From assembly GCF_044324875.1 (NCBI RefSeq), contig NZ_CP172185.1: DNA of 64,000 nt; one strand, 5' to 3'. This stretch comes from Escherichia coli. Lineage in GTDB: Bacteria > Pseudomonadota > Gammaproteobacteria > Enterobacterales > Enterobacteriaceae. The notes beneath the pieces were generated by a model, which searched no databases, had not been told where the DNA came from, and saw only the letters and a list, made by a program, of their open reading frames with translations. The translations under genes were made by a program, and so were the position numbers. The stretch's first letter is position 1. Each line of letters starts with the position of its first letter. This document shows, one piece after another, positions 17,942 through 40,254 of this stretch.

Positions 17942-20330
<2,389 letters not shown>

Positions 20331-26640: not shown

Positions 26641-27315
26641 GTGAAGGTGAAAAACAATTCACAGCTGTTGATGCCGCGCGAAAAAATGCTGAAGTTTGGT
26701 ATTAGCGCCTTAACGGATGTCGAGCTGCTGGCGCTATTTCTGCGTACCGGAACGCGCGGTAAAGATGTATTAACCCTGGCAAAAGAGATGCTGGAGAATT
26801 TCGGCTCTCTTTATGGCTTGTTAACCTCTGAATATGAACAATTTAGTGGCGTTCATGGAATTGGCGTGGCGAAATTTGCCCAGTTAAAGGGGATTGCTGA
26901 ACTGGCGCGGCGTTACTACAACGTGCGGATGCGTGAAGAAAGCCCTTTACTCAGCCCGGAGATGACGAGGGAATTTTTACAAAGCCAGCTCACGGGTGAG
27001 GAGCGGGAGATCTTTATGGTGATCTTTCTCGACTCCCAACACCGGGTTATAACGCATAGCCGCCTTTTTTCCGGCACGCTAAACCATGTTGAAGTCCATC
27101 CTCGGGAAATTATCCGCGAAGCGATAAAAATAAATGCCTCGGCGCTGATCCTTGCACATAATCACCCTTCGGGTTGTGCTGAACCCAGTAAAGCGGATAA
27201 ACTCATTACTGAACGGATAATAAAGAGTTGTCAGTTCATGGATTTACGCGTGCTCGACCATATCGTGATTGGGCGTGGAGAGTATGTTTCTTTTGCCGAA
27301 CGCGGCTGGATTTAA
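26641..27315 (+). CDS. yicR: UPF0758/RadC-like JAB-domain protein YicR
   Basis: 224-aa ORF (GTG start in track) with C-terminal HNHPSG JAMM-like motif; exact start uncertain. Confidence 0.8.
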
Positions 27316-27510
27316 CCCGCTATGCGCGATCCTTCGGGATCTTTGTCTGTTCGGGACTTGAGCACATCGCTGAGTCAGCGTATACTACGCCACCTTTGAG
27401 AATCTCGGGTTTGGCATTTGGGCCTGGCAATCGAGAGTTCACATAGAACTGCGATGACCGGGCTGTAAAGCCTGACGAGGCGCCAATACCCCATACGAAG
27501 CTCGAGCTAA

Positions 27511-27768
<258 letters not shown>

Positions 27769-27785
27769 GTACTTAGAGGAAATAA

Positions 27786-27956
<171 letters not shown>

Positions 27957-27980
27957 TTCTCGCTTTGATGTAACGAAAAA

Positions 27981-28002
27981 CCTCGCTCCGGCGGGGTTTT
28001 TT
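27981..28002 (+). terminator. rpmBG operon intrinsic terminator
   Basis: CCTCGC-TCCG-GCGGGG hairpin followed by TTTTTT. Confidence 0.55.
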
Positions 28003-28053
28003 GTTATCTGCTTACCCCCATATTGATTGCATCTGTTCATTCCTGGAGATGCT

Positions 28054-28863
28054 ATGCCTGAATTACCCGAAGTTGAAACCAGCCGTCGCGGCATAGAACC
28101 GCATCTCGTTGGTGCAACCATTCTTCATGCGGTGGTGCGCAACGGACGCTTGCGCTGGCCGGTTTCAGAAGAGATTTACCGATTAAGTGATCAACCAGTG
28201 CTTAGCGTGCAGCGGCGGGCTAAATATCTGCTGCTGGAGCTGCCGGAGGGCTGGATTATCATTCATTTGGGGATGTCTGGCAGCCTGCGCATCCTTCCAG
28301 AAGAATTTCCCCCTGAAAAGCATGACCATGTTGATTTGGTGATGAGCAACGGTAAAGTGCTGCGCTACACCGATCCGCGCCGCTTTGGTGCCTGGCTGTG
28401 GACCAAAGAGCTGGAAGGGCATAATGTGCTGGCCCATCTTGGACCGGAGCCGCTTAGCGACGATTTCAACGGTGAGTACCTGCATCAGAAGTGCGCGAAG
28501 AAAAAAACGGCGATTAAACCGTGGCTGATGGATAACAAGCTGGTGGTAGGCGTAGGGAATATCTATGCCAGCGAATCTCTGTTTGCGGCGGGGATCCATC
28601 CGGATCGGCTGGCGTCATCACTGTCGCTGGCAGAGTGTGAATTGTTAACTCAGGTGATTAAAGCGGTGTTGCTGCGTTCGATTGAGCAGGGCGGTACAAC
28701 GCTGAAAGATTTTCTGCAAAGCGACGGTAAACCGGGCTATTTCGCTCAAGAATTGCAGGTTTACGGGCGAAAAGGCGAGCCGTGTCGGGTGTGCGGTACG
28801 CCGATTGTGGCGACTAAACATGCGCAGCGGGCAACGTTTTATTGTCGGCAGTGCCAGAAGTAA
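28054..28863 (+). CDS. mutM: formamidopyrimidine-DNA glycosylase
   Basis: ORF track 28027-28863; start at [13 protein letters not shown] (N-terminal Pro after Met removal is catalytic); C-terminal zinc finger CxxC...CxxC. Confidence 0.9.
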
Positions 28864-28872
28864 TTCATGCGC

Positions 28873-28894
28873 GCCGGATGGCGTACCATCCGGC
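28873..28894. repeat. REP-like palindrome between convergent mutM and coaD
   Basis: GCCGGATGG-CGTA-CCATCCGGC perfect inverted repeat. Confidence 0.45.
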
Positions 28895-28901
28895 ATAAAC
28901 G

Positions 28902-30666
<1,765 letters not shown>

Positions 30667-31017
30667 AGTAAATAGCTGACTTATGGATGTGCTGGGGATT
30701 CTATGTATTTAGCTGTGGCTTTACCATTACTTTTCCCGTTTTTGACTTAAATAGCAATTTAGCCGCCAATTCTTGCTGAACATCTATACTTTTTTTGTAT
30801 TTTTATGCGTTTCATTGATTTCTGCAGTACGTGCAGGAAGGAATCGCAGAGCAACAGTGAAAGAATATGGTTGCTAATGATTTTATTTGATTGATTTCTT
30901 TATTGAAAATCAACAATGTGCTTAAAAATCATTCGGGTCGGATTGCCGCGAAAGAAGTGATACACTAGCGCGTCAATATCAGTGCGGTATCAGTATTCAG
31001 GTAGCTGTTGAGCCTGG

Positions 31018-31029
31018 GGCGGTAGCGTG
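31018..31029 (+). promoter_or_regulatory. ops element (RfaH recruitment site, part of JUMPstart) in waaQ operon leader
   Basis: exact GGCGGTAGCGTG in the waaA-waaQ divergent region, about 50 nt upstream of waaQ start. Confidence 0.7.
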
Positions 31030-31078
31030 CTTTTTCTGCTTCACCTTAATCGGATAATCTCAACAAAAAGAGTTACTT

Positions 31079-32137
31079 GTGGATAAGCCATTTCGAAGAA
31101 TTTTGCTCATTAAGATGCGTTTTCATGGGGATATGTTATTAACTACTCCCGTCATTAGTTCGCTGAAAAAAAATTACCCTGACGCAAAAATCGATGTGCT
31201 GCTTTATCAGGACACCATCCCGATCCTATCTGAAAATCCAGAGATTAACGCGCTCTACGGCATAAAAAATAAAAAAGCAAAAGCCGCAGAAAAAATTGCC
31301 AACTTTTTTCATCTCATCAAGGTATTACGTGCCAATAAGTATGACCTTATCGTTAATCTTACCGAACAATGGATGGTTGCTATACTGGTTCGCTTATTAA
31401 ATGCCCGTGTGAAAATTTCCCAGGATTATCATCATCGGCAGTCTGCTTTTTGGCGTAATAGTTTCACTCATTTGGTGCCGTTGCAGGGTGGAAATGTGGT
31501 GGAAAGTAACTTATCCGTGCTGACACCATTGGGACTTGATTCGTTGGTGAAGCAGACAACCATGAGTTACCCGCCTGCAAGCTGGAAACGTATGCGTCGC
31601 GAACTTGATCACGCTGGTGTTGGACAAAATTATGTGGTTATCCAACCTACGGCGCGGCAAATCTTCAAATGTTGGGACAACGCCAAGTTTTCCGCTGTGA
31701 TTGATGCCTTACATGCTCGTGGTTATGAAGTCGTTCTGACGTCCGGCCCAGATAAAGACGATCTGGCCTGCGTCAATGAAATTGCGCAGGGATGCCAGAC
31801 GCCACCAGTAACGGCGCTGGCTGGAAAGGTGACCTTCCCGGAACTTGGTGCGTTAATCGATCATGCGCAGCTGTTTATTGGCGTTGATTCCGCACCGGCG
31901 CATATTGCCGCTGCAGTTAATACGCCGCTGATATCGCTGTTTGGTGCGACAGACCATATTTTCTGGCGTCCATGGTCAAATAACATGATTCAATTCTGGG
32001 CGGGAGATTACCGGGAAATGCCAACGCGCGATCAGCGTGACCGAAATGAGATGTATCTTTCGGTTATTCCGGCGGCAGATGTCATTGCTGCTGTCGATAA
32101 ATTACTGCCCTCCTCCACGACAGGTACGTCGTTATGA
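31079..32137 (+). CDS. waaQ: LPS heptosyltransferase III
   Basis: 352-aa GT9-like ORF (GTG start in track), first gene after ops element; precise start uncertain. Confidence 0.8.
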   Translation: MDKPFRRILLIKMRFHGDMLLTTPVISSLKKNYPDAKIDVLLYQDTIPILSENPEINALYGIKNKKAKAAEKIANFFHLIKVLRANKYDLIVNLTEQWMVAILVRLLNARVKISQDYHHRQSAFWRNSFTHLVPLQGGNVVESNLSVLTPLGLDSLVKQTTMSYPPASWKRMRRELDHAGVGQNYVVIQPTARQIFKCWDNAKFSAVIDALHARGYEVVLTSGPDKDDLACVNEIAQGCQTPPVTALAGKVTFPELGALIDHAQLFIGVDSAPAHIAAAVNTPLISLFGATDHIFWRPWSNNMIQFWAGDYREMPTRDQRDRNEMYLSVIPAADVIAAVDKLLPSSTTGTSL

Positions 32138-33258
32138 TCGTTGCTTTTTGTTTATATAAATATTTTCCCTTTGGCGGTTTGCAGCGCGATTTCATGCGTA
32201 TTGCTCAGACAGTCGCCGCTCGAGGTCATCATGTTCGGGTTTATACCCAGTCGTGGGAAGGCGAATGCCCTGATGTATTTGAACTGATCAAAGTGCCGGT
32301 TAAATCGCATACCAATCACGGGCGCAATGCGGAGTATTTTGCCTGGGTGCAAAAACATTTACGCGAACATCCCGTCGATAGAGTCGTTGGATTCAACAAA
32401 ATGCCGGGGCTGGACGTTTATTATGCCGCTGATGTTTGTTATGCCGAGAAAGTAGCGCAGGAGAAAGGCTTTTTCTATCGCCTGACGTCACGTTATCGCC
32501 ATTATGCCGCCTTTGAGCGAGCAACCTTTGAACAGGGTAAGCCGACACAGCTGCTGATGCTGACAGATAAGCAAATCGCCGATTTCCAGAAACATTATCA
32601 GACTGAAGCGGAGCGTTTTCATATTCTGCCACCGGGGATTTACCCTGATCGTAAATATAGCCAGCAGCCAGCCAATAGCCGTGAAATCTTCCGTAAGAAG
32701 AATGGAATAACCGAACAGCAATATTTATTGTTGCAGGTCGGTTCAGACTTCACGCGTAAAGGTGTCGATCGCTCCATTGAAGCACTTGCTTCGTTACCGG
32801 ATTCGCTGCGCCACAACACATTGCTATATGTTGTTGGGCAGGATAAACCGCGAAAATTTGAGGCGCTGGCAGAAAAACGCGGCGTGCGCAGTAATGTTCA
32901 CTTCTTCTCGGGGCGCAATGATGTCTCGGAATTAATGGCGGCGGCGGATTTATTACTGCATCCTGCCTACCAGGAAGCGGCGGGAATTGTGCTGCTGGAA
33001 GCGATTACTGCAGGATTACCGGTACTAACAACTGCCGTTTGTGGCTATGCGCATTATATTGTCGACGCCAATTGCGGCGAGGCTATTGCTGAGCCATTCC
33101 GCCAGGAAACATTGAATGAGATTTTACGCAAAGCGTTAACGCAATTTTCATTGCGCCAGGCCTGGGCGGAAAATGCGCGACATTATGCTGATACACAAGA
33201 TTTGTACAGTCTGCCAGAGAAAGCGGCGGATATCATAACGGGTGGTCTGGATGGTTGA
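32134..33258 (+). CDS. waaG: LPS core glucosyltransferase I
   Basis: 374-aa ORF recognised as WaaG (GT4). Confidence 0.85.
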
Positions 33259-34048
33259 ACTTAAAGAGCCGTTTGCCACGTTATGGCGCGGAAAAGATCC
33301 TTTTGAGGAAGTTAAAACTTTGCAGGGTGAGGTATTTCGTGAACTGGAAACTCGCCGTACTCTGCGCTTTGAAATGGCGGGCAAAAGCTATTTTCTCAAA
33401 TGGCATCGCGGCACGACCCTGAAAGAGATAATCAAAAATTTACTCTCATTGCGGATGCCAGTATTAGGCGCAGACCGCGAATGGAATGCGATTCATCGAC
33501 TGCGGGATGTCGGCGTTGATACTATGTATGGGGTGGCATTCGGCGAAAAAGGCATTAATCCGCTGACCAGAACCTCGTTTATTATAACCGAAGATCTGAC
33601 ACCAACCATCAGTCTGGAAGATTACTGTGCTGACTGGGCGACTAACCCTCCAGATGTTCGCGTAAAGCGTATGCTTATTAAGCGTGTCGCGATGATGGTG
33701 CGCGATATGCATGCTGCGGGCATTAACCACCGTGACTGTTATATCTGTCATTTCCTGCTGCACTTGCCTTTTTCCGGTAAGGAAGAGGAGTTAAAAATTT
33801 CGGTAATTGACCTGCACCGGGCGCAGCTTCGCACGCGCGTTCCACGTCGTTGGCGCGATAAAGATCTTATTGGGCTTTATTTTTCTTCGATGAATATTGG
33901 CCTGACTCAGCGGGATATCTGGCGGTTTATGAAAGTGTATTTTGCCGCCCCGCTTAAAGACATTCTCAAGCAGGAACAAGGACTGCTGTCGCAAGCAGAA
34001 GCAAAAGCCACAAAAATCAGGGAAAGAACGATTAGAAAATCGTTGTAA
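33251..34048 (+). CDS. waaP: LPS core heptose(I) kinase
   Basis: ORF track 33242-34048; start at ATG 33251 ([14 protein letters not shown]) giving 265 aa; overlaps waaG end. Confidence 0.85.
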
Positions 34049-34090
34049 CCCGTAACTTATTTTTGCCAAAATTTTGGATACAGAATAAAT

Positions 34091-35098
34091 ATGTCTCAAC
34101 TCAATGATAGTGACATCATCCTTTTTGAGTATAACTTTCATTATCAAAATATAAGATCTAAAAATACTCTTGATATCGCATTTGGTATTGACAGAAATTT
34201 TCTTTTTGGATGTGGTGTAGCCATCGCATCTATTCTATTAAACAATAGCGAAATCTCTTGTGAATTTCATGTTTTCACAGATTATATCAGTGATAAAGAC
34301 AAGTTATATTTTTCCGATTTAGCAAAACAATATAATTCAAGAATTAATATTTATGTTATCAATTGTGATAAGCTGAAGTCATTACCAAGCACGAAAAACT
34401 GGACTTACGCTACATATTTTCGATTTATAATTGCAGATTATTTCTATAATAAACATGAAAAAATACTATACCTTGATGCAGATATTGCTTGCAAGGGTAG
34501 TATTAAAGAACTCTTAGATTATCAATTCTCTACTAATGAAATTGCCGCAGTTGTAGCTGAAAGAGATGTTGAATGGTGGCAGAATCGAGCCTCGGTATTA
34601 ACTACACCACAATTAGCTTCTGGATATTTCAATGCTGGTTTTTTGCTGATAAATATTGATGAGTGGAATCTAAATAACATTTCGTCAAAAGCTATTGAAA
34701 TGTTGCGTGACCCAGATTGGGTAAGTAAAATCACCCACCTTGATCAAGATGTACTGAATGTATTATTGAATGGTAAAGTGAAGTTTATTTCGGGGAAATA
34801 TAATACCCGATATAGTATTAACTATGAATTAAAAGACAAAGTTGATAATCCAGTCAATGATGACACCGTGTTTATACACTATGTGGGACCTACAAAACCC
34901 TGGCATGAGTGGGCTGATTATCCGGTGTCACGTAGTTTTTTGATCGCCAAAGCAGCTTCTCCGTGGTGTAAAGAAGATTTACTTAAACCTGTGAATAGCA
35001 ATCAGTATCGGTATTGTGCAAAACATAAATTTAAACAAAAGCATTATATGGCAGGCATTTTTAATTATTTAAAGTATTATAAAGAAAAATGCTTCTAA
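34091..35098 (+). CDS. waaI: LPS outer-core glycosyltransferase, GT8 family (WaaI-like)
   Basis: 335-aa AT-rich ORF with GT8 DxD motif (YLDADIACKG); position after waaP as in R3-type loci; symbol assigned by gene order, not verified. Confidence 0.55.
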   Translation: MSQLNDSDIILFEYNFHYQNIRSKNTLDIAFGIDRNFLFGCGVAIASILLNNSEISCEFHVFTDYISDKDKLYFSDLAKQYNSRINIYVINCDKLKSLPSTKNWTYATYFRFIIADYFYNKHEKILYLDADIACKGSIKELLDYQFSTNEIAAVVAERDVEWWQNRASVLTTPQLASGYFNAGFLLINIDEWNLNNISSKAIEMLRDPDWVSKITHLDQDVLNVLLNGKVKFISGKYNTRYSINYELKDKVDNPVNDDTVFIHYVGPTKPWHEWADYPVSRSFLIAKAASPWCKEDLLKPVNSNQYRYCAKHKFKQKHYMAGIFNYLKYYKEKCF

Positions 35099-35123
35099 AG
35101 ATTTAAGGTTAAAATAATTCATT

Positions 35124-35831
35124 ATGATATATAATAAAACGATAAATGGGTTGAAAGTTTTCATAAAAGATAATGATCCCTTTTATGAGCAAGTGCTGAA
35201 TGACTTTTTAACTTGCAGGGTTAAAACATTAAAAGTTTTTCGTTCTATTGATGATACTAAAGTCATTCTTATTGACACTGCTCGTGGACCTCTTGTACTT
35301 AAAGTTTATGCGCCAAAGCATAAAATGATCGAACGTTTCTTAAAATCTTGCGTAAAAAAAGATTATTATGAAAATTTAATTTATCAAACCGATCGGGTAC
35401 GTGGTGAAGGCATTCAATCAATTAATGACTATTTTTTGCTTGCTGAACGTAAAACATTAAATTTCGCGCATTATTATATTATGCTCATTGAGTATATTGA
35501 AGGTGTCGGGTTAAATGAGTATTTGGAAATTTCTGAAGATCTGAAGGAACAATTATCAGAATCGATAAAAGAGTTGCATCAGCATGGAATGGTGTCTGGC
35601 GATCCTCATAAAGGAAATTTTATAGTATCCGAAAAAGGTTTAAGACTAATTGACCTTTCAGGTAAAAAAACAACCGCAGTTTTAAAAGCAAAAGATCGCA
35701 TTGATCTTGAACGGCACTATAATATAAAAAATGAATTGAAAGACTTTGGCTATACATATCTCATATTCAAAAAGAAAATTAAAAAAGCAATCAGGGATGT
35801 AAAAGTAAAACTAGGATTGAAGAGCAAATAA
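35124..35831 (+). CDS. waaY: LPS core heptose(II) kinase WaaY-like
   Basis: 235-aa kinase-like ORF between two GT8 genes. Confidence 0.65.
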   Translation: MIYNKTINGLKVFIKDNDPFYEQVLNDFLTCRVKTLKVFRSIDDTKVILIDTARGPLVLKVYAPKHKMIERFLKSCVKKDYYENLIYQTDRVRGEGIQSINDYFLLAERKTLNFAHYYIMLIEYIEGVGLNEYLEISEDLKEQLSESIKELHQHGMVSGDPHKGNFIVSEKGLRLIDLSGKKTTAVLKAKDRIDLERHYNIKNELKDFGYTYLIFKKKIKKAIRDVKVKLGLKSK

Positions 35832-35855
35832 TGATTATGATGAAGGGTAATTAAA

Positions 35856-36869
35856 TTGGATTTTAAACATCTTACTCAATTTAAAGATATAATTGAACTG
35901 GACAAGCGCCCCGTTAAACTTGATGAACGGGAAACGTTTAATGTCTCATGGGGTATTGATGAGAACTACCAGGTTGGGGCTGCGATTTCAATTGCTTCAA
36001 TTCTTGAAAATAATAAACAAAACAAATTTACCTTTCACATAATCGCTGATTACTTAGACAAAGAGTATATTGAATTATTATCACAATTAGCAACGAAGTA
36101 TCAAACAGTAATTAAATTATATCATATTGATTCTGAGCCATTGAAGGCGCTACCTCAATCAAATATCTGGCCAGTATCTATTTATTATCGTTTGCTTTCA
36201 TTTGATTATTTTTCTGCGCGATTGGATTCATTATTATATCTTGATGCTGATATCGTCTGTAAGGGTTCATTGAACGAGTTAATAGCATTAGAGTTTAAAG
36301 ATGAATATGGGGCTGTGGTAATTGATGTAGATGCTATGCAAAGTAAAAGCGCTGAGCGTTTATGTAATGAGGATTTTAACGGTAGCTATTTTAACTCTGG
36401 TGTAATGTATATTAATTTACGGGAATGGTTACAACAAAGACTAACGGAGAAATTTTTTGATCTATTATCAGATGAGTCAATTATCAAAAAATTAAAGTAT
36501 CCGGATCAAGATATTTTAAACTTAATGTTTTTACATCATGCTAAAATATTACCGAGAAAATATAATTGTATTTATACTATAAAGTCAGAATTTGAAGAAA
36601 AAAATAGTGAATATTACACCCAGTTTATTAATGATGAAACTGTCTTCATACATTATACTGGTGTAACTAAGCCATGGCATGATTGGGCGGACTACGCATC
36701 TGCAGATTATTTTCGTAATATTTATAATATATCTCCATGGAGAAATATACCTTATAAAAAAGCTGTTAAAAAACATGAGTACAAAGAAAAATATAAACAC
36801 TTGCTTTACCAGAAAAAATTTCTCAATGGTGTTTTTACAGCAATTAAATATAATGTTATGAAAGGTTAA
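35856..36869 (+). CDS. waaJ: LPS outer-core glycosyltransferase, GT8 family (WaaJ-like)
   Basis: 337-aa AT-rich ORF with YLDADIVCKG motif; symbol by order. Confidence 0.55.
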   Translation: MDFKHLTQFKDIIELDKRPVKLDERETFNVSWGIDENYQVGAAISIASILENNKQNKFTFHIIADYLDKEYIELLSQLATKYQTVIKLYHIDSEPLKALPQSNIWPVSIYYRLLSFDYFSARLDSLLYLDADIVCKGSLNELIALEFKDEYGAVVIDVDAMQSKSAERLCNEDFNGSYFNSGVMYINLREWLQQRLTEKFFDLLSDESIIKKLKYPDQDILNLMFLHHAKILPRKYNCIYTIKSEFEEKNSEYYTQFINDETVFIHYTGVTKPWHDWADYASADYFRNIYNISPWRNIPYKKAVKKHEYKEKYKHLLYQKKFLNGVFTAIKYNVMKG

Positions 36870-36877
36870 TATTCGAG

Positions 36878-38020
36878 ATGGTTGATAAAATAATATTTAC
36901 AGTTACTCCTATTTTTTCAATTCCTCCCCGCGGAGCGGCCGCTGTTGAAACGTGGATGTATCAGGTTGCTCAGCGTACCAATTTCCCAAATCGCATTGTT
37001 TGTATCAAGAATCCAGGATACTCAAATTACACCTTTGTTAATGATAATTGTAGTATTCATAGGGTTGGATTCAGTCGCATATATAAGCGGTTATTTCAAA
37101 AATGGACAAGACTTGATCCTCTACCATATTCACAGAGAATATTGAATATTGCCCATGATTTTCCTATAACGAAAGAAAGTGTTATTGTAGTTCATAATAG
37201 CATGAAGCTATACACTCAAATTCGTAAGCGAGCTCCTCAGGCAAGAGTGGTTATTCATATGCATAATGCATTTGAACCAAAATTGCTTGAGCAAAATGTT
37301 AAAATGATAGTGCCTAGTTTATACTTGAAAAAGTATTACCAATCTTATTTAGCAAATGCAGATATTGAGATTGTACCAAATGGAATTGATTTAGAAACCT
37401 ATCAATCTACTTTTCAGCCGATCACTAGAAGCGAACTTAATATCTCCCCTGAAGAGAAAATTATTTTTTATGCTGGGCGTATCGTCCCTGACAAAGGCAT
37501 ATTACTGTTGATGCAATCATTCGAAAAATTGGCCGTTGCTCACAAAAATTTAAAATTAGTTGTGATTGGTGATTATACAGAAATGAGTAAAAGTGACAAA
37601 GGTGCATATCAACACAATGTCAGGGAAATTGCAAAACGTTTGAAGGATCGTTGCATTATGTTAGGAAGCATACCGCCTGAAAAGATGCATTGTTATTACC
37701 CACTGGCAGATTTAGTTGTCATTCCTTCCCAGTTCCAGGAACCATTTTGCATGGTGGCAATTGAAGCTATGGGGGCTGGTAAGCCTGTTTTAGTGAGTAC
37801 GCGTGGGGGGATGACGGAATTTGTCAAAGAAAATACTACGGGATTCCATTTAAAAGAACCTATGACTGCAGACTCCATAAGCAGCGATATTTTAAAAACG
37901 TTAGCGAATCCTGAATTAACAGCAGTTGCAAAGCAAGGTCAGGATTTTGTGTTTGATCACTACAGTTGGGATGGCGTAACTCAAAGATTCGAAGAGGTCA
38001 TTCATAATTGGTTTGAATAA
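36878..38020 (+). CDS. waaD: LPS outer-core glycosyltransferase, GT4-like (WaaD-like)
   Basis: 380-aa ORF with EX7E motif (EPFCMVAIE) of retaining GT-B glycosyltransferases; last gene of waaQ operon before convergent waaL; symbol tentative. Confidence 0.45.
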   Translation: MVDKIIFTVTPIFSIPPRGAAAVETWMYQVAQRTNFPNRIVCIKNPGYSNYTFVNDNCSIHRVGFSRIYKRLFQKWTRLDPLPYSQRILNIAHDFPITKESVIVVHNSMKLYTQIRKRAPQARVVIHMHNAFEPKLLEQNVKMIVPSLYLKKYYQSYLANADIEIVPNGIDLETYQSTFQPITRSELNISPEEKIIFYAGRIVPDKGILLLMQSFEKLAVAHKNLKLVVIGDYTEMSKSDKGAYQHNVREIAKRLKDRCIMLGSIPPEKMHCYYPLADLVVIPSQFQEPFCMVAIEAMGAGKPVLVSTRGGMTEFVKENTTGFHLKEPMTADSISSDILKTLANPELTAVAKQGQDFVFDHYSWDGVTQRFEEVIHNWFE

Positions 38021-38022
38021 AT

Positions 38023-38049
38023 AAAAAGGCCGCATTATGCAGCCTTTTT
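38023..38049. terminator. bidirectional terminator hairpin between convergent waaD-like gene and waaL
   Basis: AAAAAGGC-c-GCATtATGC-a-GCCTTTTT palindrome with A-run on one side and T-run on the other. Confidence 0.5.
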
Positions 38050-38056
38050 TATTTTT

Positions 38057-39265
38057 TTACTTGTTTTTCATTGCTAATAATAAGCCGGCGTAAACGCCTA
38101 ATAAATTTGGTTCAATTTGTTCTACGTTTCCACGGATAACAAAATAACCTATAAAAGATAGTAAGATTATATAATATGCATTATATGGTGAGCGGTTTTT
38201 ATTCTGGACGCCATTTTTTATACACTCTTTCAATATTGCGCAGTATAGCATCATAAGACTTATCAGCCCTAATAAACCAGTGCCAAACCAGATGAATAGC
38301 GCAAAATTATGTGGCCCTATCGATTGTCTAAAGGTCCATTCTGGATAATCAACGACACGTTTATTATAGACATCTTTATATGCAACGTTACCGTAACCGT
38401 AACCAATAACAGGATTTTCTAATATTAGATCGAGTGCGCTGCCTTGAGTACCATTTGCATAGCGATAAGAACTATTAGTTTGTTGAAGTTTATACGTTAG
38501 ATTTGCGGTCATCTCCTTATGTGTGAAAATAACCGATAATGCAATGATGGAAACCATTACTCCTACTAATAGTAACTTCCATTGTTTAAACATCAGAATC
38601 CATATTAATCCAATGACTAACACGGAAAGCCAGGCTCCTCTGGATAAAGTTCCTAATATCAGAAAAATAAAAATAACGCTTAGAACCGCAAAAGAAATGC
38701 GGTATTTTGCTGATTTGATAAGCCAGAGATTTAACAATGCAGGAAATAAAAAGACCATCGAGTCAGAAATGCTACGGTGTCTATAATCTGCAAATGGCAT
38801 TACCCCTTGTTGATAGTCCTTATAATAGGCAATCAATTCAGAAAAACAACGTAAGCCCAACGCACTTATAAATGAGAAGAAAACGATTTTTTCGACATCT
38901 TCTCTTTTCTCGTCTCTCAATATGACCGGTATTGCTATTGTGCATAGTAAAGTATTTTCAATGATAGCTTTGAAAATTTCCTTCATGCTAGCACCTGCAT
39001 CTGGGGATTGAAGAAGTGATAGCAATGCAGCAATAGTTAATATGGCAACACTACCAAAAAGACATGTTTTAAATAGTGAAAGATAGTGTTTTGGCCGTTT
39101 GCAGAGATAGACGATTGTCGTTATTGTCATAAGAATAACAATAAGATGTTTATACCTTGTAATCCCACCCAAAAAATAGGTGGTAATGAATAAGAATACG
39201 AGAGCTCTGTTCCAGTACGCTATCCAGTTTTTTTTCTCGAGAGAGAAAAATAATGTTGAGGTCAT
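38057..39265 (-). CDS. waaL: O-antigen ligase
   Basis: 402-aa multi-pass membrane ORF downstream of waaC; start overlaps waaC stop (ATGA). Confidence 0.75.
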   Translation of the reverse strand: MTSTLFFSLEKKNWIAYWNRALVFLFITTYFLGGITRYKHLIVILMTITTIVYLCKRPKHYLSLFKTCLFGSVAILTIAALLSLLQSPDAGASMKEIFKAIIENTLLCTIAIPVILRDEKREDVEKIVFFSFISALGLRCFSELIAYYKDYQQGVMPFADYRHRSISDSMVFLFPALLNLWLIKSAKYRISFAVLSVIFIFLILGTLSRGAWLSVLVIGLIWILMFKQWKLLLVGVMVSIIALSVIFTHKEMTANLTYKLQQTNSSYRYANGTQGSALDLILENPVIGYGYGNVAYKDVYNKRVVDYPEWTFRQSIGPHNFALFIWFGTGLLGLISLMMLYCAILKECIKNGVQNKNRSPYNAYYIILLSFIGYFVIRGNVEQIEPNLLGVYAGLLLAMKNK

Positions 39266-40254
39266 CTTATCTCCGATGTCAACTTATTGGTTATTATTTC
39301 AAGATTTAAATTTTGAAAAACGGTTTGAGCTGGCAAATCTGCAAGAGACATACTTGTAGAACGACACTCTACTTGATTCTTCCCATACCCGCCAATTAAT
39401 CCCGGATCGGTAGGTCCATAAACCGTGATATTGGGTCTATCCAGTGCCGCCGTTAAATGGCTTAACCCCGTATCCACCGACACTACAAATTTAGCCCCGG
39501 CCAGCACGCGGGCAACGCCTTCCAGACTCATCTTCGGCAATACTTCAACATAAGCAAATCCTTCCGCCAGTCGTTTCGCCCGTTCTTCCTCATGCGGCGC
39601 GCCCCACGGAAGTTTAATCCGTATTCCTGAATCTGCCAGTAAACCAATCAAATCTCGCCAGTGTTCTTCCGGCCAGTGTTTATCATCACGGGTCGTCGCA
39701 TGAAGAAATACGGCATATTCGCCAGCATCTGTAGGCAGGTTCGTCAGGAAATGCTGTGCAATAGCATAATCGCCCTGGGTTTGCGGTTTGCTATAGCCCA
39801 GACTTTTGGCAAACAGTTCGCGGGTGCGTTCTACGGCGTGCTGCTGTTTCGCAATATGATGCTTACGATTGTAAAACAAGCTTGCCAGTGGTTCGCGAGC
39901 GGTTTGCCAGTCCATTCCATGCTTTACGCCATGTGCCAGACGCGTCACCAGCGCCGCGCTTTTTACCAGCCCCTGAGCGTCGATAACTGCGTCATAGTTC
40001 TCTGCTTGTAGCGCTTCACGAAACGCTTTCCGTTCAGCTTTTATGGGGGCCGAGAACCAGGCTTTACGCCAGCGACGTATTGCCACAGGAATAACTCGCT
40101 CAACAGCGGCGTGCCAGGAAGGAATTTGTGCGAACCCTTCTTCCACCACCCAGTCAAACTTAATCCCTGGGATTGCCTGCTGGGCATCAGTGAGTGCGGG
40201 CAACGTATGGAGAACATCGCCCATCGACGATGTTTTAACGATCAAAACCCGCAT
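39262..40254 (-). CDS. waaC: LPS heptosyltransferase I
   Basis: MRVLIVKTSSMGDVLHTLPALTDA N-terminus; GT9. Confidence 0.85.
   Translation of the reverse strand: MRVLIVKTSSMGDVLHTLPALTDAQQAIPGIKFDWVVEEGFAQIPSWHAAVERVIPVAIRRWRKAWFSAPIKAERKAFREALQAENYDAVIDAQGLVKSAALVTRLAHGVKHGMDWQTAREPLASLFYNRKHHIAKQQHAVERTRELFAKSLGYSKPQTQGDYAIAQHFLTNLPTDAGEYAVFLHATTRDDKHWPEEHWRDLIGLLADSGIRIKLPWGAPHEEERAKRLAEGFAYVEVLPKMSLEGVARVLAGAKFVVSVDTGLSHLTAALDRPNITVYGPTDPGLIGGYGKNQVECRSTSMSLADLPAQTVFQNLNLEIITNKLTSEIR

Follow-up and report, generated by a model that had tools for sequence, protein, structure and literature searches.

Does the spacer between the divergent waaA and waaQ genes of Escherichia coli carry a complete RfaH-dependent switch when the genes that follow specify an R3-type lipopolysaccharide (LPS) core? 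We examined this question in a 64-kb stretch of E. coli DNA (hereafter, the window), for which an original prediction had proposed that an exact ops element in the spacer makes the outer-core operon RfaH-dependent. On the sequence evidence, the spacer very probably contains the control region typical of the LPS core (waaQ) operon in E. coli, with RfaH loading at ops. RfaH dependence of the operon is supported by three lines of evidence: a match to the JUMPstart element, identity to the uropathogenic strain CFT073 over the relevant DNA, and transcription starts that map upstream of ops.

Gene boundaries were set using the ORF map, NCBIfam matches, and the RefSeq annotation of L001, an E. coli locus 99.8% identical to the window that was also the source of gene names and coordinates (Table 1). 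Because the ORF map ends waaA at 30666 and starts waaQ at 31079, the spacer spans positions 30667-31078 (412 bp), exactly as predicted. Its description as AT-rich and flanked by divergent genes also holds, with a G+C content of 38.3% versus 50.0% across the 64-kb window. The operon on the waaA side, which had been written coaD-waaA, does diverge from waaQ, but its gene order is the reverse, with waaA first and coaD second. The spacer was found in 5,424 of 5,426 complete E. coli genomes, waa being chromosomal core-genome DNA, and falls into two main allele classes in that collection, with 4,112 genomes at 99% identity or more and 934 at 60-80%. Repeats in the spacer are limited to short and weak ones, and small ORFs of 21-34 aa were rejected as features since they sit in poorly conserved DNA. 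In E. coli strain E2, an IS4-like element, ISVsa5, is inserted in the waaA-waaQ spacer (L005, 7696-8904), upstream of the promoter/JUMPstart block, which is intact. As for waaA itself, MarA binds the K-12 kdtA (waaA) regulatory region in vitro with no measured regulatory effect (PMC12052159), and a Reg-Seq study lists one regulatory site for waaA-coaD (PMC7567609).

Table 1. Genes, control elements, and spacer segments of the waaA-waaQ region, in window coordinates.
Feature	Position	Strand	Evidence and remarks
coaD, second in the waaA-coaD operon	28902-29381	-	TIGR01510; coordinates from the RefSeq annotation of L001
waaA (Kdo transferase)	29389-30666	-	NF004385, 906 bits, full length; RefSeq annotation of L001
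Spacer, waaA-proximal segment	30667-30755		89/89 identical to MG1655; waaA leader/promoter presumed here
Spacer, allele-specific segment	30756-30920		165 bp; 55% identical to MG1655; 33% G+C; conserved island 30789-30817
Spacer, third segment	30921-30990		87% identical to MG1655
Extended -10, TGaTACACT	30958-30966 (hexamer 30961-30966)	+	Read from sequence; putative promoter
RirA homologue	30973-31044	+	First 72 nt of the waaQ leader; aligned to MG1655 rirA
JUMPstart	30991-31029	+	Rfam RF01707; stem 30998-31002/31012-31016, loop 31003-31011, ops at 3' end; JUMPstart/ops 39/39 identical to MG1655
ops element GGCGGTAGCGTG	31018-31029	+	Exact single match; pause at U11 = 31028
Spacer, waaQ-proximal segment	31030-31078		65% identical to MG1655
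AAGAG, weak Shine-Dalgarno-like motif	31068-31072	+	Read from sequence; 6 nt before GTG
Probable RfaH-target operon, R3-type core cluster	31079-38020	+	ORFs, NCBIfam, L001 annotation; ~7 kb
waaQ	31079-32137	+	GTG start; RfaQ NF007742, 712 bits, full-length equivalog match
waaG	32134-33258	+	Generic GT4 models below cut-off; name from the L001 RefSeq annotation
waaP	33242-34048	+	NCBIfam match
waaI/O	34091-35098	+	NCBIfam match
waaY	35124-35831	+	NCBIfam match
waaJ-like GT8 gene	35856-36869	+	Below family cut-off
waaD (GlcNAc transferase)	36878-38020	+	NCBIfam match

The ops 12-mer GGCGGTAGCGTG occurs once in the window, at the predicted coordinates and on the waaQ coding strand; a single-mismatch search added no second site, and the pattern GGCGGTAGnnTG is likewise fitted by this site only. 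From base composition, 0.0077 exact copies are expected in the window on both strands, and 3e-5 on the plus strand of the spacer. The element is carried by the non-template (coding) strand, on which the genes from waaQ to waaD are also encoded, and starts 61 nt and ends 49 nt before the waaQ start codon. In structural work, ops is a consensus pause in which T11-G12 induce pausing at U11; in its non-template strand, pairing of C3 with G8 gives a small hairpin, T6 is flipped into an RfaH pocket, and G4, G5, A7, and G8 are indispensable (PMC5995543). All of the bases used by RfaH (G4, G5, T6, A7, G8, and the C3:G8 pair), together with the T11-G12 pause dinucleotide, are present in the window ops. 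The shorter 8-mer GGCGGTAG has three more copies, at 20118 (+), 23676 (-), and 58612 (-), which were rejected as ops elements as they lie inside ORFs and lack T11/G12, two of them being antisense to the gene. The total of four compares with 1.3 expected and was reached in 3 of 100 shuffles. Similarly, 34 of the 42 ops-like sites in CFT073 are within genes, without RfaH binding (PMC9765446).

Comparison with known JUMPstart sequences, the check proposed with the original prediction, shows the 12-mer to be the 3'-terminal part of a complete RF01707 element. The covariance-model match, at 55.2 bits where the gathering score is 35 (E 4e-11), covers model positions 1-38 of 38, with a 5-bp stem-loop followed by GGGCGGTAGCGTG. 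The element adjoins a polysaccharide cluster, ending at the same 49-nt distance from waaQ, with which the LPS core operon begins.

The same arrangement recurs well beyond E. coli. A scan of one genome per species for the exact JUMPstart pattern returned at least 120 loci and, among the matches listed, at least 24 further loci have JUMPstart directly upstream of a WaaQ homologue. They belong to another E. coli assembly and to 12 or more further enterobacterial genera, the hosts listed being Escherichia albertii, E. whittamii, Citrobacter, Enterobacter, Pluralibacter, Kosakonia, Shimwellia, Cedecea, Silvania, Intestinirhabdus, Pectobacterium, Symbiopectobacterium, and Serratia. Since the JUMPstart pattern was the search key, conservation of the element in this set is by construction; the features that count independently are where it lies with respect to waaQ, together with the -10 region, the start codon, and the stem pair left free by the pattern. 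Among the matches listed, the GTG start of the waaQ homologues is kept in all aligned loci. TGnTACACT or TACAAT precedes waaQ in most Enterobacteriaceae loci and is not seen in Pectobacterium, Symbiopectobacterium, or Serratia; AAGAG is kept in most Enterobacteriaceae loci, and the same three genera have AAGGAAA. Of the 119 distinct elements among the matches listed, 106 have a Watson-Crick and 9 a wobble combination at the free stem pair, i.e., 115 paired versus 72 expected if the two positions were independent, with three Watson-Crick types represented.

Three side observations emerged from these comparisons. MG1655 waaQ is annotated from an ATG 12 codons downstream, giving 344 aa versus 356 aa by PGAP; judging from the sequence, the longer, GTG-started form is probably correct and the MG1655 annotation 12 codons too short. 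The divergent waaA/waaQ arrangement is not universal, since in Citrobacter sp. Cu233 and C. youngae a JUMPstart-preceded waaQ-like gene (66% identical) is found ~3 kb from waaA. Finally, exact JUMPstart/ops sequences were found on contigs labelled Arthrobacter, Erysipelotrichia MAG, Wohlfahrtiimonas MAG, Chryseobacterium, and Peptococcaceae MAG; these five contigs are probably contaminating or mis-binned enterobacterial DNA.

The conserved block also corresponds to a small RNA. MG1655 rirA (b4760) is an annotated 73-nt ncRNA in the same spacer, identical to the window at 67 of 73 positions. Its homologue in the window has the same location, the first ~72 nt at the 5' end of the waaQ leader, and likewise contains JUMPstart and ops; it differs by five substitutions and by a T-run after ops that is one T shorter. 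RirA has been described as part of the waaQ 5' UTR, having its 5' end in common with the waaQ mRNA and containing JUMPstart and ops; carrying ops as RNA, it is reported to damp RfaH activity, and as a discrete RfaH-binding RNA of ~73 nt it is known from K-12 only (PMC8745692, PMC5736990, PMC6358824).

It is possible, if on the whole somewhat unlikely, that the conserved block acts mainly as RNA, through the JUMPstart hairpin or a 72-nt RirA-like sRNA, and that recruitment of RfaH at the DNA level is secondary. The identity to MG1655 rirA fits such a role, and so do the conservation, which reaches 5' of ops over the whole of JUMPstart, and the stem covariation, which includes G-T wobbles as RNA pairing would give. 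These points are set against structural and mutational work in which RfaH reads ops as a hairpin in the non-template DNA (PMC5995543) and against the origin of the RirA data in over-expression experiments in K-12. Moreover, a terminator search of the spacer predicted none, and folding of the whole leader RNA was no better than that of shuffled sequence (z = 0.56), so neither approach offers a terminator-like structure that would set a 3' end near 31044. A hairpin or sRNA that titrates RfaH or acts in cis, which we entertain tentatively, would be an added layer and not an exclusive alternative to RfaH loading at the ops DNA, the reading that we prefer.

Comparison with K-12 delimits what has been conserved in this spacer. 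The spacer is a mosaic relative to K-12: identity to MG1655 drops from 100% to ~55% at 30755/30756 and remains low through waaQ-G-P, except for the promoter-JUMPstart-ops island. The waaQ-G-P genes share 63-85% nucleotide identity with those of K-12, and the WaaQ protein 72%, versus 98-100% for waaA. Because an element without a single change sits among diverged flanks and next to a WaaQ of only 72% identity, JUMPstart/ops is a conserved island in old, diverged DNA, a pattern that argues for purifying selection. The window WaaQ is nearer to the WaaQ of Citrobacter, Silvania, and Pluralibacter (~80%) than to that of K-12.

The K-12-like spacer allele occurs with K-12/R2-type clusters and the window allele with R1 and R3 clusters. 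It is doubtful, yet conceivable, that the spacer, instead of being one control region, is a junction at which an ancient, diverged 'waa allele' begins, at 30755/30756, bringing differing upstream inputs to waaQ/waaA initiation. The diverged allele would then comprise the central 165 bp together with waaQ-G-P, 55-85% identical to K-12 and linked to core type, with the promoter-JUMPstart-ops island preserved in it almost without change by selection. Were this the case, R1/R3 and K-12/R2 operons would share RfaH elongation control and differ in the initiation of waaQ and/or waaA, and a private T at 30810 could be a regulatory variant. This T, within 30789-30817, the one island of conservation in the variable segment, replaces an A present in K-12, GMF054, and CFT073. 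The segment 30780-30840 has an exact match in 0 of 5,426 complete E. coli genomes, the best having one mismatch, and the T may represent either a rare variant or an error in sequencing. On a larger scale, no complete E. coli genome exceeds 98.9% identity to the conserved left part, positions 27000-34000 (mutM to waaP); strain 042 and many others match the AT-rich outer core at 34000-39300 with 100% identity. This distribution suggests a mosaic ancestry of the locus, or a source lineage absent from the genome collection.

That ops is transcribed is indicated by two start sites transferred by homology only, from the MG1655 annotation, reviews, and a CFT073 data set. The 5' end of MG1655 rirA, taken as the waaQ 5' end, aligns 45 nt before ops, to window position 30973; for CFT073, RNA-seq places the start of the transcription unit at the equivalent of window position 30991, 27 nt before ops. 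The two differ by 18 nt and both are upstream of ops, placing it by homology within the transcribed untranslated leader, which runs from the promoter side to the start codon at 31079. A promoter downstream of 31029, named with the original prediction as the finding that would overturn it, is at odds with both positions. The extended -10 lies 7 nt upstream of the putative start at 30973, without a good -35. A consensus sigma70 scan of the spacer gave two weak sites only, no more than in shuffles, and its sole plus-strand site is at 30903-30932; the extended -10 promoter goes uncalled because its -35 is poor. The view of this operon as one without a ribosome-binding site is only partly true here, because AAGAG and the GTG start are conserved.

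The closest experimental reference is CFT073. Window positions 30937-31078 (142 bp) are base-for-base identical to CFT073, and the whole spacer differs from it by 5 substitutions in 412 positions. As all five, the private T at 30810 among them, fall upstream of 30937, the two sequences agree throughout the promoter, leader, JUMPstart, ops, and ribosome-binding region. In Data set S2A of the CFT073 study, 27 nt separate the unit start from ops and 61 nt separate ops from rfaQ, and the rfaQ unit has an 88-nt UTR and a length of 7,940 nt; sigma70 ChIP peaks at the predicted start, upstream of ops (PMC9765446). It is very improbable that in this strain the effective promoter overlaps ops or lies downstream of it, in which case the element would be untranscribed and unable to act as ops. 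Both the 30903-30932 scan site and the extended -10 are predictions, which leaves some room for this scenario; against it stand the two transferred starts, the identity to CFT073 from 30937 to the start codon together with the sigma70 signal there, and the shortness of the interval from ops to GTG, 49 nt in which the consensus sigma70 scan found no promoter-like site.

The CFT073 data extend to RfaH itself. The RfaH ChIP-seq signal starts at the rfa locus, covers the operon, and is gone in an rfaH deletion (PMC9765446). Without RfaH, the RNA polymerase (RNAP) travelling ratio falls to 0.1-0.34 or less, and RNAP occupancy 5.4 kb downstream collapses (PMC9765446). The rfaQ, wzx, wza, and tssH sites that RfaH binds in CFT073 have exactly the same 12-mer as the window. 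The gene rfaH is outside the 64-kb window, so its presence in the source strain is presumed; it is found in 5,425 of 5,426 complete E. coli genomes. A chance occurrence of the 12-mer, with no role and with the operon read through without RfaH, is effectively refuted: ops-like 8-mers do arise in coding DNA, as the three in the window and the unbound intragenic majority in CFT073 illustrate, but this copy was hardly to be expected on the spacer plus strand, is embedded in a 39-nt JUMPstart 20 bits over the Rfam threshold, is unchanged (39/39) across alleles whose flanks are 55-65% identical, occupies the same place before waaQ in many genera, and has a sequence that is bound by RfaH in CFT073.

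In the DNA downstream, G+C content is 27-40% from about 33900 to 39300, making the distal half of the operon AT-rich, and waaL, waaC, waaF, and hldD converge on it from the opposite strand. RfaH suppresses pausing and Rho/H-NS-dependent termination and recruits the ribosome (reviews; PMC9765446), and in CFT073 it counter-silences H-NS over such AT-rich DNA (PMC9765446).

Taken together with the published mechanism, these features suggest the following course of events. RNA polymerase would start near 30973 at the extended -10 and, after 45 nt, reach ops within an untranslated waaQ leader of ~106 nt, whose first 72 nt would be the counterpart of the K-12 sRNA RirA. The polymerase would pause at U11 (31028), and the exposed non-template strand would form the small hairpin with its C3:G8 pair and flipped-out T6. 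RfaH, reading this hairpin, would open and displace NusG from the elongation complex. It would then suppress pausing and Rho/H-NS-dependent termination and bring the ribosome to a GTG start that lies 49 nt downstream and is weakly signalled, allowing the polymerase to complete the ~7-kb waaQ-G-P-I-Y-J-D operon through its AT-rich distal half. For this strain, we infer the same start site, RfaH loading, and polarity suppression, as well as any RirA-like RNA, from homology.

The ops element, its mechanism, and its location before waaQ are already documented for other E. coli by genetic, structural, and ChIP-seq work, and the JUMPstart/ops and RirA region is known; here, it is found in another strain, before an R3 core gene set. 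The window thus adds no new biology, and indicates that an R3-core strain probably carries an intact RfaH-dependent switch for its core-oligosaccharide operon, which is relevant for annotation and for RfaH or ops as an anti-virulence target. Compared with the waaQ (rfaQ) leaders of K-12 and CFT073, the window has the same ops, 39-nt JUMPstart, 61-nt spacing, strand, and divergence from waaA. Unlike CFT073 (R1) and K-12, it continues into an R3-type core operon, waaQGPIYJD, and has waaL on the opposite strand. Other RfaH-dependent 5' leaders, those of rfb/wzx (O-antigen), kps (capsule), hly (haemolysin), and tra, likewise contain one ops each and precede envelope or virulence operons that are long, AT-rich, and bound by H-NS. 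In the window, the distance from ops to the start codon is within the 40-71 nt reported for wzx, kps, and rfa, whereas hly and kps use variant ops sequences (GGCGGTAGCATG, GGCGGTAGCATA) and the hly leader is much longer than that of waaQ.
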